Positions 1,871 through 48,977 of a DNA stretch of 64,000 nucleotides are shown here, one piece after another; position 1 is the stretch's first letter; each line of letters opens with the position of its first letter. This DNA is from an uncultured Clostridia bacterium (lineage in GTDB: Bacteria > Bacillota > Clostridia > TANB77 > CAG-508): contig CAKOSX010000002.1 in assembly GCA_934119935.1 (NCBI GenBank), positions 44,294-108,293 on the forward strand. The letters run 5' to 3'. Below the pieces are notes generated by a model. That model saw only the letters and a list, made by a program, of their open reading frames with translations. It was not told the DNA's origin and did not search any database. Both the position numbers and the translations under genes were made by a program.

Positions 1871-2005
1871 AACTTACTCCATTTATATTATAACCTATCT
1901 GAAATCAATTTTTTGTAGAAAACAGTAGATTAAAAAAATTATTAATTATTTTGCAAATTATAATGCTAATCAGAAATAATTTATGTTTTTGAAAAATTCA
2001 ACTGG

Positions 2006-2050
2006 AAGCTCGCCTTTTGAGGAGTCCGAAGGAGCTCCGACCAAGAGCGA
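2006..2050. repeat. Dispersed intergenic repeat, copy A (core GCTCGCCtTTTGAGGAGTCCGAAGGAGCTCCGACCAAGAGCG)
   Basis: Near-identical 40-45 nt core found again at 6098-6144 and, reverse-complemented, at 28735-28790 and 28863-28917; GC-rich relative to the AT-rich surroundings. Confidence 0.6.
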
Positions 2051-2199
2051 CATGTTGAATTTAAAAAAACAAATTATTTCTAATTAATATTAATATAAAA
2101 TACTAATCATATTGCAATGGAATTATATAATATTTTTTGCAATGTGTCAAAATTTATGCTATACTATCAATTGAAATTTTTGAAAAAAGAGGAAAAATT

Positions 2200-6059: not shown

Positions 6060-6097
6060 ATTTAATAATAAAAAATAATTTCCATTTTTAAAAATAA

Positions 6098-6144
6098 GGT
6101 CGAGCCCGCCTTTTGAGGAGTCCGAAGGAGCTCCGACCAAGGGC
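6098..6144. repeat. Dispersed intergenic repeat, copy B
   Basis: GGTCGAGCCCGCCTTTTGAGGAGTCCGAAGGAGCTCCGACCAAGGGCG plus a shared 3' flank TACCGAAaTTTtTAAAAATTGAAATTG also seen in copies C/D. Confidence 0.6.
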
Positions 6145-6202
6145 GAAATACCGAAATTTTTAAAAATTGAAATTGTTTTATATATAAATAATTGTAAAAT
6201 AG

Positions 6203-13949: not shown

Positions 13950-14027
13950 TGGTGCACCCTCAAGGATTCGAACCTTGGACCGACCGGTTATGAGCCGGTT
14001 GCTCTGACCAACTGAGCTAAGGGTGCA
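13950..14027 (-). tRNA. tRNA with CAT anticodon (Met, or Ile2/lysidine type)
   Basis: Reverse complement TGCACCCTTAGCTCAGTTGGTCAGAGCAACCGGCTCATAACCGGTCGGTCCAAGGTTCGAATCCTTGAGGGTGCACCA; anticodon loop CTCATAA; overall resembles Bacillus tRNA-Ile2 (CAU). Confidence 0.8.
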
Positions 14028-25784: not shown

Positions 25785-27980
25785 ATGTCGGAAAACGTAA
25801 ATCACACCATAGAAGAAGTATTAGAAAATGCAAAAAAATCTAATAGAAGAGCAGATTTAAAATTAATAAGAAGAGCATATGATTTTGCAAAATCTAAGCA
25901 TGGAGAACAGTTGAGAAGGTCTGGAGAACCATATATAATACATCCGGTTCAAGTTGCATATATATTGTCTACACTTGGACTCGATGAGAGCACTATTTGT
26001 GCTGCTCTTTTACATGATGTAATTGAAGATACAGATGTAACTTTGCAAGATTTGTCTAAGGAATTTTCACCAGAGATTGCAGAAATGGTTGATGGTGTTA
26101 CAAAGCTTGGTAAATTAAATTATACGAGTGAACAAGAGCAACAAGTTGAAAACTACAGAAAAATGTTCTTGGCAATGGGAAAAGACATAAGGGTAATTCT
26201 TATTAAATTAGCCGATAGACTTCATAACATGAGAACATTAAAATATTTGGCTAGGGACCGTCAAATTGCAAATGCAAGGGAGACAATGGACTTGTATGCT
26301 CCACTTGCAAACAGACTTGGTATGTATTCTTTAAAATGGGAACTAGAGGATTTATCGTTTAAATATTTATATCCAGAGGAATATAGAGAGCTTGTTGAAG
26401 GAATAGACAAGAAGAGAGAAGAAAGATTGAAATTCATCGATCAGATTATGGACGAGATAAGAGTTCAATTAAAGAAGCAAAAAATAGAAGCGGAAATAAC
26501 AGGTAGAGCAAAGCATTTATATAGTATTTTTAGAAAAATGCAGAGAGACAATAAGACTCTGGACCAGATTTATGATTTATTCGCATTAAGAATTATCGTA
26601 AATTCTGTAAAAGACTGTTATGCTGCATTAGGTGTCGTGCATGAGCTTTATAATCCAATGCCAGGAAGATTTAAGGATTATATCTCGGTTCCAAAACCTA
26701 ACATGTATCAATCTTTACATACTACTTTGATAGGTCCAAAAGGAACTCCATTCGAGGTACAGATTCGTACATGGGATATGCATAGGATAGCCGAATATGG
26801 TATTGCTGCACACTGGGCCTACAAAGAGGCAAGCTTCATGGGAGGCAAGAAGGCAAATGTAGTAGTAAATCAAGATAAATTATCTTGGTTAAGGGAAACA
26901 CTTGAATGGCAAAAAGACATGCAAGACCCACAAGAGTTCTTAAATACATTAAAAACTGAATTATTTGAAGATGAGGTTTATGTGTTTACTCCAAAGGGAA
27001 AAATTCAAGTATTACCAAGAGGAGCTACACCAATAGATTTTGCTTACAGTATTCACGAAGAAATAGGAAACCATATGACTGGCTGTAAGATAAACAGCAA
27101 GATGATGCCTATTGTAACAAAACTAAAAAATGGTGATATTGTAGAGATTATTACATCAGATAAATCTAAAGGACCAAGTAGAGATTGGCTTAAATTTATA
27201 AAAAGTAGTACAGCAAAGACTAGAATACAACAATGGTTCAAGAAGAATGAAAGAGTAGAAAACATTGCAAGAGGAAAAGACGCTTTAGAAAAAGAAGTAA
27301 AGAAAATTGGAATGAGCTACCCAGAATTATTCAGACCAGAGTTTGTCGAGGCTGCACTTGAAAGATACAAATATAATAGTGCAGATGATATGTTCGCAAG
27401 TGTTGGATTTGGAACAATTACAGCAAATAAAATAGTTTCAAGAGTACTTGAAGAATACAGAAAAGTTCATAAAGAAGAAAATCTAGAAGAAAAAATAGAA
27501 GAACTTACAAAGGAAAAGACAAACAGCAAGCCATCAACAAGTGGTGTAATTGTAAAAGGAATAGACAACTGTCTAGTAAAACTATCAAAATGTTGTAACC
27601 CAGTACCAGGAGACGAAATTGTTGGATATATTACAAAAGGAAGAGGCGTATCTGTACATAGAAAAGACTGCAAGAACGTAAAAGACTTGGTATCTGAAGA
27701 AAACAGAATGATAGATGTTTCATGGTACACAGACAAACCATCGAGCTATAATGTTGATGTTGTAGTATTTTCAAATGATAGAGATGGATTACTTGCAGAC
27801 ATAATTGCAACAATAACTGCAGAAAAAACACCTATAATGGCTGTATCATCAAAAGTATCTAAAGAAAGAATAGTATTAACAGAATTAACACTAGAAGTAA
27901 GCAATATAGCACAATTGAACAGTGTTTTAAAAGCAATAAGAAAAGTAGACAGCGTATATGAAGTAAGAAGAAATAAATAA
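25785..27980 (+). CDS. relA: Bifunctional (p)ppGpp synthetase/hydrolase Rel
   Basis: HD hydrolase (HDVIEDT), synthetase motifs (RIKxxxSxxxK, DxxGxRI), TGS and C-terminal ACT domains; 731 aa. Confidence 0.92.
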   Translation: MSENVNHTIEEVLENAKKSNRRADLKLIRRAYDFAKSKHGEQLRRSGEPYIIHPVQVAYILSTLGLDESTICAALLHDVIEDTDVTLQDLSKEFSPEIAEMVDGVTKLGKLNYTSEQEQQVENYRKMFLAMGKDIRVILIKLADRLHNMRTLKYLARDRQIANARETMDLYAPLANRLGMYSLKWELEDLSFKYLYPEEYRELVEGIDKKREERLKFIDQIMDEIRVQLKKQKIEAEITGRAKHLYSIFRKMQRDNKTLDQIYDLFALRIIVNSVKDCYAALGVVHELYNPMPGRFKDYISVPKPNMYQSLHTTLIGPKGTPFEVQIRTWDMHRIAEYGIAAHWAYKEASFMGGKKANVVVNQDKLSWLRETLEWQKDMQDPQEFLNTLKTELFEDEVYVFTPKGKIQVLPRGATPIDFAYSIHEEIGNHMTGCKINSKMMPIVTKLKNGDIVEIITSDKSKGPSRDWLKFIKSSTAKTRIQQWFKKNERVENIARGKDALEKEVKKIGMSYPELFRPEFVEAALERYKYNSADDMFASVGFGTITANKIVSRVLEEYRKVHKEENLEEKIEELTKEKTNSKPSTSGVIVKGIDNCLVKLSKCCNPVPGDEIVGYITKGRGVSVHRKDCKNVKDLVSEENRMIDVSWYTDKPSSYNVDVVVFSNDRDGLLADIIATITAEKTPIMAVSSKVSKERIVLTELTLEVSNIAQLNSVLKAIRKVDSVYEVRRNK

Positions 27981-28042: not shown

Positions 28043-28693
28043 ATGATTTTAAAAAGATTAAAAGTACAAACGACTTTAGGAGAAGCAACAAATTGTTACA
28101 TAGTAGAAGACGAAGAAACAAAAGAAACGATGGTTATAGATCCAGGTGGAGAAGCAGATAAAATTGTAGAAATGATAGATATATTAGAGGCAAATGTAAA
28201 ATACATTTATCTAACACATTGCCATGGAGACCACATTGGAGCCGTTTCGGAGGTAAAGAGCAAAAAAGGTGGAAAAATATTAATCCATAGAGACGATGCA
28301 GAAGGCTTAGATGACGAAAACATAAATTTAAGCGCATGCATTAACATGGGAGACATAGAGCTAGAACCAGATTCAAGAGTAGACGACGGAGATTTAATTC
28401 ATGTTGGAAGTCTAGAATTTAGAGTAATACACACTCCAGGACACACAAAAGGTTCTACTTCGTTATATTGTGAAAAGGAAGGATTATTATTTTCGGGAGA
28501 CACATTATTTAGAGGAACTTGGGGAAGAACAGATTTACCAACTAGTTCGTTCGTACAAATAATAGACTCGATTACAAAAAAATTACTTGTATTACCAGAC
28601 GAAACAATAGTATATCCGGGGCATGGAAAATCTACATTAATAAAGGAAGAAAAGCCAATTTATCTAGAACTAAAACCTCGTCAAGAATGCTAA
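28043..28693 (+). CDS. MBL-fold metallo-hydrolase (glyoxalase II-like)
   Basis: THCHGDHIG metal-binding motif; 216 aa. Confidence 0.7.
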   Translation: MILKRLKVQTTLGEATNCYIVEDEETKETMVIDPGGEADKIVEMIDILEANVKYIYLTHCHGDHIGAVSEVKSKKGGKILIHRDDAEGLDDENINLSACINMGDIELEPDSRVDDGDLIHVGSLEFRVIHTPGHTKGSTSLYCEKEGLLFSGDTLFRGTWGRTDLPTSSFVQIIDSITKKLLVLPDETIVYPGHGKSTLIKEEKPIYLELKPRQEC

Positions 28694-28714
28694 AAACTAA
28701 TTACTGCATTACCA

Positions 28715-28968
28715 ATTTTAATTTTTTTAAACTTCGGTACGGCGCTCTTGGTCGGAGCTCCTTCGGACTCCTCAAAGGGCGAGCTTGACCTTGTTTTGCA
28801 AAAATGAAAATTGGCATGCAATATAAAGGTATAAATAGCCAATTTAAATTTTTTTAAACTTTGGTACGGCGTTCTTGGTCGGAGCTCCTTCGGACTCCTC
28901 AAAGGGCGAGCTTGACCTTGTTTTGCAAAAATGAAAATTGGTAATGCAATAAATCTAAATTTTAATTT
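28715..28968. repeat. Tandem direct repeat (2 x about 127 bp) carrying repeat-family copies C and D (reverse orientation)
   Basis: AATTT(T/A)AATTTTTTTAAACTT(C/T)GGTACGGCG(C/T)TCTTGGTCGGAGCTCCTTCGGACTCCTCAAAGGGCGAGCTTGACCTTGTTTTGCAAAAATGAAAATTGG repeated with period 127 and 3 mismatches; occupies the hisS leader. Confidence 0.7.
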
Positions 28969-28997
28969 TGCCGTTTTGAGGCGAGAAAGGAGAAAAT

Positions 28998-30365
28998 ATG
29001 GGAAAGACAGAACCAAGAACTCTACCGGGTTTTATGGAACTTTTGCCAAGTGAGCAGATTTTATTTGATGATATGAAGCAGAAGATTGAAAAGTCGTATC
29101 AAAAGTTTGGATTTTTGCCAATAGATACGCCTATAATTGAGTATGCTGAAGTATTGCTTGCAAAGGCTGGTGGAGAAACAGAAAAGCAAATATACAGATT
29201 TGAAAAAGGTGATACGGATTTAGCTTTAAGGTTTGATTTAACTGTACCACTTGCAAAATATGTAGCAAAAAATTATGGAAATTTAAGTTTTCCGTTTAGA
29301 AGATATCAAATAGGAAAAGTATATAGAGGCGAAAAAGCGCAAAAAGGAAGATATAGAGAGTTTTATCAATGTGACATAGATATAATTGGAGATGAAACTC
29401 TAGACATTATAAATGATGCAGAGCTTCCGGCTGTAATTTACTCAACTTTTAGAACTTTAGGATTTGAGAATTTTACAATAAAAATAAATAACAGAAAAAT
29501 TCTAAATGGCTTATTTGAAGGGATTGGCCAAAAAGATAAATCTGTAGAAATCTTAAGAATAATCGATAAAATAGATAAAATTGGAGAGCAAGCTGTAAGA
29601 AAAGAAATAGCTGAGCTTGGAGTAGACGAAAAAATAGTAAATACAATAATAGATTTTATAAGAATAGACGGAAGTGCAGACGAAAAGATAGAAAAACTTG
29701 AAAAAATGGACTTATATAGTGCAAATATTGTGGAAAACGATAATCAAAATGCAGAAAATATGACAAATGCAATATTTACAAAAGGCGTAAATGAGTTAAA
29801 AGAAGTAGTTGAAAATATTAGATTATTTGGAGTGCCAGATAAAAACTTTACAGTTGATCTTACGATAGCAAGAGGTTTAGATTATTATACAGGAACTGTA
29901 TATGAAACATTCTTAAATGACTATAGAGAAATTGGAAGTGTTTGCTCTGGAGGAAGATATGAAAATTTAGCAGAAAATTACACAGATAGAAAACTTCCAG
30001 GAGTTGGTGTATCAATAGGTCTAACAAGATTATTCTACAAATTAAATGAATTAAATTTAATTAAAGCAGATAAAAAATCAATTTCTGATGTATTAATAAT
30101 TCCAATGACAGAAAATAAAAAAATTCCATTAGAATTAGCAACAAATTTAAGAAATATAGGTATAAATACAGAAATATATTTGAATAATAAAAAAATAAAA
30201 GCAAAAATGAAATATGCAGACAAGCTTGAAATTCCATATGTAATAGTAATTGGCGATGATGAAATTGCAAACAATACAGTAAAAGTAAAAAATATGGAAA
30301 CAGGAGAAGAAAAATCAACAGATTTTAATGCAGAAAGCGTTAAAAAAGTGATAAAAGGAGAATAA
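28998..30365 (+). CDS. hisS: Histidine--tRNA ligase (class II, divergent N-terminus)
   Basis: Motif 2-like RRYQIGKVYRGEKAQKGRYREFYQCDIDIIG; C-terminal anticodon-binding domain; AAGGAG RBS. Confidence 0.75.
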   Translation: MGKTEPRTLPGFMELLPSEQILFDDMKQKIEKSYQKFGFLPIDTPIIEYAEVLLAKAGGETEKQIYRFEKGDTDLALRFDLTVPLAKYVAKNYGNLSFPFRRYQIGKVYRGEKAQKGRYREFYQCDIDIIGDETLDIINDAELPAVIYSTFRTLGFENFTIKINNRKILNGLFEGIGQKDKSVEILRIIDKIDKIGEQAVRKEIAELGVDEKIVNTIIDFIRIDGSADEKIEKLEKMDLYSANIVENDNQNAENMTNAIFTKGVNELKEVVENIRLFGVPDKNFTVDLTIARGLDYYTGTVYETFLNDYREIGSVCSGGRYENLAENYTDRKLPGVGVSIGLTRLFYKLNELNLIKADKKSISDVLIIPMTENKKIPLELATNLRNIGINTEIYLNNKKIKAKMKYADKLEIPYVIVIGDDEIANNTVKVKNMETGEEKSTDFNAESVKKVIKGE

Positions 30366-30369
30366 AAAG

Positions 30370-31719
30370 ATGAAAAATAAAAAAGTTTTAATTGTAATAA
30401 TAGTATTATTGATTATATTAACTGTTTGCGGAGGTGCTTTCGCCTATGTGTACTTTGCAACAGATTTATTAAAAAGTAATTCACAAATGTTTTCTAAATA
30501 TGGAACCATGTTAAATATGGAATTATATAATTTCTTTTATGATGAAAACATAAAAACGTATTATACAAATAAGTCAGCCAATAATTATGAAAATACTGGA
30601 GCATTAAAAATAAAGTCGGATGGAAATACAGATGTTAATACAGATTTAAACCTTACTTTTAAAGGGGCAACAGACATAGATAATGATAATTTTGAACAAG
30701 AAATAACTATTAACTATTCGGATTCTGAAAAATTTGCATTTAAATTTGTAAAAAATAATCAGATGATTGCACTTGGCTCTGATGAAGTTGCTAATAAATA
30801 TGTAGGAATAAAAAACGAAAATTTAAGTGATTTGTCTAACAAATTAGGACTAGGAGAAGGTATAGAAATTCCAGATAGTATAGAATTAAATAAATCTGAA
30901 ATGACAATTCAAGATGTTAGAAGCTTGGTAATCAAATATATAGGAAAATTGGCAGGACAACTTTCAGAGTCAAATTTCTCAAAGAATAATAATACATCAT
31001 ACACATTAACAATTGAAAAAGATAATTTAAAAAATATTATAATATATTGCTTGAATGAGGCTAAGAATGATTCGGAAATTATTGAAATGTTGGGAATGAG
31101 TAACGATATATCTAAATACCAAGATAATATTGATCAAGCAATTAATAAATTAAATGAGCAAGATTTTTCGAATATATCTATCAAAATGACATTAACAAAT
31201 ACTGAAAATGGTGGAGAAGCTGATGTTGAGATAAACACAGATGGATATAGTTCAAAATCTTCTATAATATTAGAACAAGGAAATAACATAAAAATAAAAC
31301 AAACAACTACTTCATATGCATCAAATGTAATTACAGAAGAAACAACTTCTACTTCAAAGGAAACAGTATATACAATATCTAAAGAAGAATCTGCAAGCAA
31401 GAGCAAATACACAATAACAAGTATACAAGACAATGATTCACTTGAAATTGGGTTCGAATTAGATAATATTTCTAATAATGGCGCAACTGAAAAAGTTTAT
31501 GTAACATATGATGCTGATGATGCTAAATTTGATGCAGAATATAATAATGCAATAACATTTAAAGATGTAACGGTTACGGAATTAAATGGTAATAACAGTA
31601 TTGCATTAAACGATTACAACCAAGAAGAATTAGGAATCCTGCTGCAGCAACTATTTATACAAACTATTACTGTAAATTCTCAGAAAATGCAAAATGCATA
31701 TGGTGTTAGTTTGTTTTAA
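30370..31719 (+). CDS. Hypothetical membrane-anchored Asn/Ser/Thr-rich protein
   Basis: N-terminal TM helix (VLIVIIVLLIILTVCGGAFAYVYF), low-complexity extracytoplasmic region; no recognisable domain. Confidence 0.5.
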   Translation: MKNKKVLIVIIVLLIILTVCGGAFAYVYFATDLLKSNSQMFSKYGTMLNMELYNFFYDENIKTYYTNKSANNYENTGALKIKSDGNTDVNTDLNLTFKGATDIDNDNFEQEITINYSDSEKFAFKFVKNNQMIALGSDEVANKYVGIKNENLSDLSNKLGLGEGIEIPDSIELNKSEMTIQDVRSLVIKYIGKLAGQLSESNFSKNNNTSYTLTIEKDNLKNIIIYCLNEAKNDSEIIEMLGMSNDISKYQDNIDQAINKLNEQDFSNISIKMTLTNTENGGEADVEINTDGYSSKSSIILEQGNNIKIKQTTTSYASNVITEETTSTSKETVYTISKEESASKSKYTITSIQDNDSLEIGFELDNISNNGATEKVYVTYDADDAKFDAEYNNAITFKDVTVTELNGNNSIALNDYNQEELGILLQQLFIQTITVNSQKMQNAYGVSLF

Positions 31720-34439: not shown

Positions 34440-34656
34440 ATGTAAATAGATAAGCAATGAGAAAAAGTAAAATAAAGGTTACTTTTAGAGAGGAATTGCC
34501 ATAGGCTGAAAGCAATTCTAAGCAAACGTATTCGAAAAACTACCTCACAGAAAACTCTGGCGAAAGCTTGCTTAGTAAATTAAGTAAAAAATTAGGATGG
34601 AACCGTGCATATATGCACTCCTAAATGTTAAAAGCATTTGGGAGTGTTTTTGTTTT
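34440..34656 (+). promoter_or_regulatory. T-box riboswitch leader (Thr-specific) controlling thrS
   Basis: Conserved T-box sequence AAATTAGGATGGAACCGTG at 34588-34607; terminator CACTCCTAAATG / CATTTGGGAGTG plus T-run; candidate ACC/ACU specifier in AAAACTACCTC. Confidence 0.75.
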
Positions 34657-48684: not shown

Positions 48685-48977
48685 AGTAAAGCATGTAAGA
48701 TAGCGAAGAAGTGAAATGTGGCTACAACCATACAATTAACCAAGGTTGGAGGGAACTTTCATGGAGCATGTCATGGCTGAGACCAGGCGGTAAGGTTAAG
48801 GTATCCGTAAGAGATTTTGCGGGTAGCTTATGCATACTGAAAAGTATGTATTAATAAATGTACACTTTATCCCAAGATAATCATGCAAAAACTTGGGCTT
48901 TTATATTGGTAATATTTAGAACACCAGGGTGCGTTTATAACTTCCGACCAAAAAAATATTTAAGGAGGGAAAATTAC

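Follow-up and report, generated by a model that had tools for sequence, protein, structure and literature searches.

The window analysed here, a 64-kb stretch of DNA from an uncultured Clostridia genome, carries a dispersed repeat at three intergenic sites: the divergent spacer between era and pth, the spacer between trpS and obg, and the spacer between the gene for an MBL-fold hydrolase and hisS. The last of these holds two copies in tandem. The features that concern the analysis are as follows.

1961-2092, plus strand: copy A, a hairpin in the era/pth divergent spacer, arms 1961-1993 and 2060-2092
6068-6183, plus strand: copy B, a hairpin in the trpS-obg spacer, arms 6068-6095 and 6156-6183
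25785-27980: relA, upstream of the MBL-fold hydrolase gene and hisS
28043-28693: gene for the MBL-fold hydrolase, upstream of hisS
28697-28984: 288-nt segment missing, by alignment, from the empty site of a close relative (L040)
28712-28951: 127-bp tandem duplication, 1.9 units (TRF, 95% matches)
28712-28814, minus strand: copy C, first tandem unit, MBL hydrolase-hisS spacer
28839-28941, minus strand: copy D, second tandem unit, MBL hydrolase-hisS spacer
28998-30365, plus strand: hisS, downstream of the tandem repeats

The 27-nt core, TTTGAGGAGTCCGAAGGAGCTCCGACC, has four exact matches in the window and none in 100 shuffles. These lie at 2016-2042 (+) in copy A, 6112-6138 (+) in copy B, 28750-28776 (-) in copy C and 28877-28903 (-) in copy D, and a covariance model of the repeat matches the same copies at 1987-2072 (87.5 bits), 6085-6168 (109.6 bits), 28720-28803 (104.9 bits) and 28847-28930 (97.1 bits), respectively. 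A scan of the window with this model, filters off, returned copies A to D and nothing more. The sequence-only reading had described the four cores, a flank common to copies B, C and D (TACCGAA.TTT.AAAAA.TT.AAATTG) and the intergenic position of every copy, ahead of pth, obg or hisS; all three descriptions hold. Its unit of about 85 nt was too short, as the arms had been overlooked. Each copy is one long imperfect hairpin of approximately 105-150 nt, with the core as its tip.

The hairpin and its covariation

The outer arms are AT-rich and differ from copy to copy, while the tip is 66% GC in a window of 32% GC. On the strand with GAGGAGTCC, the hairpin consists, from base to tip, of the AT-rich arms, a 3 bp helix P0 (GGT/ACC in window copies B, C and D), an internal loop, a 4 bp helix P1 (GCTC/GAGC or GCCC/GGGC), a GCC bulge, a TT/AA step, a 4x4 internal loop with TTGA opposite GACC, and an apical hairpin, P3, of 7 bp with one bulged base (GGAGTCC-GAA-GGA(G)CTCC). 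The constant internal loop thus has GCC-TTTTGA on one side and GACCAA on the other. The minimum-energy fold over all copies has a median of 38 base pairs around the core and spans some 146 nt. Compared with shuffled sequence, the folds are clearest for copy A (z = -4.3) and copy B (z = -5.8).

The arms belong together within a copy. An arm forms a duplex of -18.1 kcal/mol with its own partner and of -8.0 kcal/mol with the arm of another copy (means), and the own partner is the top-ranked duplex in most copies. The arms of copy A are 33 nt long and 82% complementary; those of copy C lie at 28712-28731 and 28795-28814, and the left flank of copy C, GCATTACCAATTTT, finds its best pairing partner in the right flank of copy D, AAAATTGGTAATGC. 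Between sites the arms are approximately 70% identical, although some kinship can still be recognised, for example between L008a and L008b and between copy C of the window and L025. The highest identity between the arms of two sites is about 86%, which suggests that the family is old and not currently bursting; judged by these arms, there is no sign of very recent transposition.

A covariance model was built from 18 copies, and 91 matches, 72 of them distinct, were aligned to it. Standard pairs fill 93.6% of cells; shuffling the columns lowers this to 85.2%, and sliding the partners to 50% or less. Two-sided changes occur in 10 of the 16 pairs, including every pair of P0 and P1, these counts being drawn from a model-fitted alignment that leans towards the structure of the model. 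An independent RNAalifold analysis of a plain MAFFT alignment also found two covarying P1 pairs. This analysis, made on 140-nt segments, recovered P1 and P3 only, because indels in the arms break the alignment. P3 is likewise kept by compensatory changes: GGGG/CCCC at two sites (L101:7935 and L115:1078), GGCT/AGCC at L046:687, and GGAGC-loop-GCTCC at L025:4382. Throughout, and in these variants as well, the unpaired bases TTGA...GACC(A/T)AG stay constant.

Constant unpaired bases within covarying stems suggest that it is the folded strand that is recognised. Selection on an RNA hairpin would, however, be expected to leave the same covariation. It must also be considered that the loci were collected by exact match to the core, and the invariance of the core is therefore partly a sampling effect. 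Most of the extra copies inside the collected loci have variant cores, and a profile search found approximately 10 variant or decaying copies there. On this evidence the canonical subfamily is only part of a larger and more diverse family.

Which strand is read makes little difference to the fold. The core alone folds equally well on either strand, and fold energies show no preference overall for the sense over the antisense strand. One strand of the element is slightly more stable (63 against 33 unique copies), and arm G-U pairs number 130 against 100. A strand-specific RNA function was rejected, since the fold energies have no sense preference and the core is strand-neutral.

Distribution, orientation, gain and loss

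A scan for the exact canonical 24-mer, with one genome per species, found 25 loci in 6 assemblies, all from uncultured Clostridia or Clostridium sp. CAG:245. One fragmented metagenome-assembled genome holds 11 copies of the exact core and another holds 8. When metagenome contigs were scanned with the loop and the bulge left free, at least 120 loci were found, and among the matches listed, wherever the record name gives a source, that source is the human gut. The family is confined to a single uncultured genus of Clostridia from the human gut, the lineage of Clostridium sp. CAG:245. It is also previously undescribed and uncatalogued: the literature, searched without the name of the lineage, yielded no published description, and Rfam holds no match for the element at gathering thresholds or at E<=10, which removes the known RNA families as candidates. 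The two outcomes that would have told against the sequence-only reading, fragments of a known ncRNA or riboswitch and a lack of further copies beyond the window, were thus both answered in its favour.

Two other Rfam matches in the window fell below threshold. At 48698-48793 (+), a match to the S10-Clostridia ribosomal-protein leader scored 34.0 bits, against a gathering score of 35.1, and adjoins the 5' side of a ribosomal-protein gene cluster. At 13952-14026 (+), a 'Plastid-ycf2' match of 43.7 bits lies antisense to a tRNA-Met and is an artefact of the structure of the tRNA itself.

In total, at least 162 copies are present at approximately 50 intergenic sites. Strict clustering, in which both flanks must match, gives 56 site clusters, of which 22 were sampled more than once; looser clustering merged sites through chimeric contigs. 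The flanking genes are housekeeping genes, among them era, pth, trpS, obg, plsY/gpsA, a methionine gamma-lyase gene and a murD-like gene. There are no matches to the element in viral contigs, and a phage origin was discarded on that ground. At one locus (L075), two copies seemed to flank a mobile gene, but what lies between them appears to be an ordinary open reading frame of 145 aa, next to a murD-like gene.

The sites are usually just 3' of a stop codon and include spacers inside operons. In these short spacers the element is found either complete, with both arms, or not at all. Copy B is absent from CAG:780-like relatives, and in relatives with TrpS approximately 90% identical trpS and obg are separated by 57-60 nt that contain no long hairpin. 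Comparison of filled with empty sites at hisS and trpS-obg found no pre-existing hairpin. Nor was a direct-repeat target-site duplication, for which the sequence-only reading had proposed to look, found in these two comparisons, which were made between species so that short duplications could be blurred, or at the boundaries of the flips described below. Ordinary terminators of the window resemble the outer arms, and insertion of a small module into the loop of an existing terminator was considered for that reason. The empty hisS and trpS-obg sites, which hold no hairpin, and the recognisably related arms at different sites (L008a and L008b; copy C and L025) both speak against it.

Copies also decay. 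In a Hamming-distance scan, the copy at L022:4746 has 10 changes towards AT in 30 nt relative to its orthologue at L008:5072. This site (L008:5045-5128, L084:6518-6601, L022:4746) decays in different lineages, with the bulged G changed to A in one lineage and TCC changed to TCA in another.

By class, 22 of the sites lie between tandem genes, 9 between convergent and 3 between divergent genes. At the tandem sites the upstream gene reads one strand of the element at 10, the other at 8, and either at 4, and the orientation relative to neighbouring genes is thus unbiased. Copies are also flipped in place. Between copy B and its orthologue in L013, the flanks are collinear and the central 100 nt or so are reverse-complemented. 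Both orientations are present at 7 of the 22 sites sampled more than once, with no conflicts (both flanks matched; different samples), and the flanks of flipped pairs are 87% to 99.6% identical. The mismatches of the arms flip along with the core, which places the breakpoints in the outermost 6-15 perfectly paired bases. Breakpoints at that position rule out both a de Bruijn-graph artefact and independent insertions, and assembly error was rejected because paired outer stretches of approximately 6-15 nt are far shorter than assembler k-mer sizes and the mismatches co-flip. The many further copies, the unbiased orientation, the flips and the empty sites together bear out the earlier argument, made from non-constant orientation in the window, for an element that acts at the DNA level rather than as a cis-regulatory RNA.

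The hisS spacer

The tandem units upstream of hisS differ at three positions over the 103-nt hairpin part (28719, 28735 and 28745) and diverge after 28815, so that the period of 127 nt and the three mismatches first reported are both reproduced. The pair is also present in four other independent metagenome assemblies that encode an identical HisS and is therefore not an assembly artefact. The spacer varies in copy number between relatives, a point that the earlier reading had proposed to check: there are two units in the window, one in the sister lineage L032, where HisS is 95% identical, and none in L040 or L039. At the empty site of L040, the stop codon of the MBL hydrolase gene is joined to the hisS ribosome-binding site through TAAAAA-T-GAAAGGAG, and the coding sequence beside it is still closely similar. 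More distant relatives (L035 and L036) have a plain spacer of 66 nt. These alignments show the hisS repeats to be a lineage-specific insertion into a once-minimal spacer.

The element would have entered this minimal spacer as a single unit and later have been duplicated. The 127-bp duplication is bounded by short AATTTTAATTTT-like repeats at 28714, 28841 and 28958, and these, together with the single unit in L032, fit slippage or unequal exchange as its probable route.

It had been supposed that the repeats stand where a T-box would be expected. Of this, the lack of a T-box is borne out, with Rfam finding neither a T-box nor any other family in the hisS spacer, even at E<=10. The expectation itself is not, since the MBL-hisS spacer of relatives is only approximately 17-66 nt and holds no leader. 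This suggests that hisS in this clade is probably cotranscribed with relA and the MBL hydrolase gene and that the repeats displaced nothing. If hisS is affected at all, this would follow incidentally from the placing of two stable hairpins in the transcript.

The gene for threonyl-tRNA synthetase, thrS, does have a T-box, as had been noted. A targeted scan of 400 nt placed it at 34448-34625 (+) with 49.1 bits and E=6e-10, which is less than the 93 bits that Rfam sets as gathering score. ACC (Thr) is a plausible specifier, and a clean terminator, CACTCCTAAATG...CATTTGGGAGTG then TTTTTGTTTT, extends to approximately 34660. The method that gave no match in the hisS spacer is thus able to detect a T-box in this window. 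Whole-window Rfam scans failed to report it, which indicates that their filters hide divergent T-boxes in this AT-rich genome.

Other palindromes have also been found between the MBL hydrolase gene and hisS. Those at L034:100-215 and at L037:1345-1480 and L038:1345-1480 (HisS 89% and 77% identical) are unrelated to the repeat. One begins with a REP-like GTAG (GTAGGGACATACCTTA...TAAGGTGTGTCCCTA), and the other is a hairpin of approximately 125 nt with arms GATTGAAAAATAATTGCTTTTTGGC and GCCAAAAGCACAATTTTTTTCCAATC. From these sequences, different hairpin families seem to have settled in this spacer repeatedly.

Two further observations concern annotation here. A minus-strand open reading frame at 28690-29016 (108 aa, TTG start) spans the tandem repeats and could be annotated by gene callers; it is almost certainly spurious, a stop-free stretch that arises from the duplicated sequence. 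Directly after hisS, at 30370-31719 (+), is a gene for a 449-aa DUF6583 protein, which keeps this position in the closest relatives and is absent where HisS is 77-80% identical. In many Firmicutes, aspS directly follows hisS.

Affinities and upkeep of the element

The repeat had been called REP/MITE-like, a label that applies only in a loose sense. What stands of this is a dispersed hairpin DNA element with copies present in some relatives and absent from others; what does not is the GTAG head of REPs and the conserved terminal repeats and target duplication of MITEs. The REP, BIME and REPIN elements of enterobacteria and pseudomonads are likewise GC-rich imperfect palindromes, extragenic and numerous in a genome, that form hairpins with conserved bulges. 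They share with the present family the lack of target-site duplication, occasional tandem clusters, a species-specific sequence, and a tendency to lie 3' of genes and in convergent spacers. REP/BIME/REPIN elements are mobilised by RAYT tyrosine transposases. Here, in a Clostridia lineage, the alignments have no GTAG at the foot of the hairpin, TTGA and GACCAAG being the constant unpaired bases, and tblastn with two transposase sequences as queries, a weak test, found no RAYT or IS200-type transposase in 1.27 Mb of collected sequence. The conserved part is also a different one: the tip of the hairpin is conserved and the arms vary, whereas REPINs have conserved REP arms and a variable spacer. 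REPs are not known to flip in place as whole elements.

With the Correia/NEMIS elements of Neisseria and RUP, BOX and SPRITE of the pneumococcus, the repeat shares a length of 100-150 bp, the lack of coding capacity, one long stem-loop, an intergenic location and presence or absence between related genomes. Unlike bacterial MITEs, it has terminal repeats that are complementary within a copy and only approximately 70% identical between sites, no known parent insertion sequence, and no direct-repeat target duplication at hisS or trpS-obg, where filled and empty sites were compared. No insertion sequence came to light, and the neighbours of the copies examined are housekeeping genes.

Stem-loops derived from IS200/IS605 ends are present at the 3' ends of Borrelia lipoprotein genes (PMC3184786). 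These too are orphan hairpins without a transposase gene that undergo compensatory base changes, but they are 32-51 nt and traceable to a known insertion sequence, whereas the repeat described here has no known source element. Template switching is documented to make the arms of inverted repeats alike and to invert the spacer between them (PMC8604942), and it can maintain the pairing of a hairpin and so mimic compensatory evolution (PMC8794818). The present repeats match these outcomes in arm homogenisation, in apparent compensatory substitutions and in spacer inversion; template-switch quasipalindromes (PMC8604942, PMC8794818) are single loci, however, and this is a dispersed family with a conserved asymmetric core, which template switching by itself would be expected to erase. 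The repeat behaves most like REP/REPIN elements and MITEs such as Correia and RUP, and it fits none of their definitions.

Taken from sequence comparison, the evidence points to the repeats probably being a REP/MITE-like family of non-coding, structured palindromic DNA, of which one member was inserted upstream of hisS and then duplicated. The element would persist as a DNA palindrome, with template switching between the arms during replication keeping them complementary and now and then reverse-complementing the whole palindrome in place. Template switching alone should perfect the palindrome, and the persistence of the asymmetric loop and bulge would therefore point to recognition of the folded single strand by a putative trans-acting protein. 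The likeliest candidate would be an enzyme responsible for copying or moving the repeat, of the kind known from the REP/RAYT and IS200/IS605 systems.

The hairpins might instead be useful to the host as RNA, either as bidirectional intrinsic terminators or as stabilisers of the 3' ends of upstream mRNAs, with the stems kept by selection. Fold stability is very high, the median distance from the upstream stop codon to the core is 66 nt, there are 9 convergent spacers to 3 divergent ones, and in the orientation seen upstream of hisS the inner stem ends in ...GACC and is followed by UUGUUUUG. REP elements are similarly biased towards convergent genes (PMC3184786). Against this, a consensus scan found no terminator-like sites in the hisS spacer, and a T-tract follows the outermost stem at only 12 of the 47 sites when one strand is read and at 15 of the 47 when the other is, with none at 21 of 47. 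The ordinary terminators of the window are short hairpins with A/T tracts. Orientation to the upstream gene is without bias, copies stand within likely operons before essential genes (plsY-gpsA, MBL-hisS and trpS-obg), and close relatives are hairpin-free at the same sites. Termination, moreover, needs no constant unpaired bases. We consider this explanation unlikely, and the element is, from its sequence, probably not a canonical intrinsic terminator. It may nonetheless provide some attenuation or protection of mRNA ends, given its position after stop codons, the excess of convergent sites and the UUGUUUUG that follows the inner stem.

Protein recognition could also be part of an undescribed hairpin- or cruciform-specific DNA transaction in Clostridia. 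A protein would read the folded tip, that is, the TTGA/GACCAAG loop and the bulged hairpin, cut at the base of the palindrome, excise or copy it, and reinsert it either way round. Such an activity would explain gain and loss as a block without target duplication, breakpoints of flips at the foot of the hairpin, and the conserved asymmetric core. It is a speculative proposal, and one that we hold to be rather doubtful.

The asymmetric tip could also be a domesticated DNA site, bound as duplex or cruciform by a factor concerned with the nucleoid or with topology; BIMEs, for example, bind IHF and gyrase. The canonical 24-mer is unchanged at at least some 47 sites in at least 6 species, with arms approximately 70% identical between sites, and the 66% GC of the tip stands out in a 32% GC genome. 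A function independent of orientation would also fit with the flips. That the copies are gained, lost and decaying between close relatives does not favour this, the invariance of the core is in part due to how the loci were collected, and a site bound as duplex needs no covarying stems. A domesticated protein site is accordingly improbable.

The presence of both orientations at 7 of 22 sites, some with flanks at least 99% identical, recalls phase-variable invertons, in which regulated inversion would switch a downstream gene in its expression. Each site has its own arms, however, and there is thus no common recombinase site; no invertase gene adjoins any copy examined, the segment is only approximately 110 bp, and by consensus scan no promoter-like site within the spacer faces hisS. 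Regulated inversion is very improbable. A cis-regulatory leader RNA that serves hisS in place of a T-box, suggested by the position of the element immediately upstream of hisS and by the T-box of thrS in the same window, is hardly tenable, as no T-box, riboswitch or other Rfam model matches even at E<=10, the same element is found before or after unrelated genes in both orientations, and it is absent from the orthologous spacers of relatives with near-identical hisS starts.

Recognition of the hisS repeats as palindromic DNA removes a tempting mis-annotation, that of the hisS 'leader' as a regulatory RNA, which it is not. A working covariance model now defines the family in a common, uncultured lineage of the human gut. 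Approximately one third of the repeatedly sampled sites carry either orientation, the stems covary and the asymmetric core stays, and this natural data set lets template switching be weighed against selection or enzyme recognition in the upkeep of a hairpin, a question that REP-like elements also pose. Copy number and orientation could also act as strain markers.

The family has a practical consequence as well, since it breaks or mis-joins metagenome assemblies. In a number of contigs (L003 and several metagenome loci, represented by the unique sequences u30, u50, u58, u63, u70, u78 and u80), the left half of one site is fused to the right half of another precisely at the core, through either chimeric assembly or real recombination between copies. 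In scaffold L026, a gap of 100 N (2663-2762) lies inside the core of a repeat.
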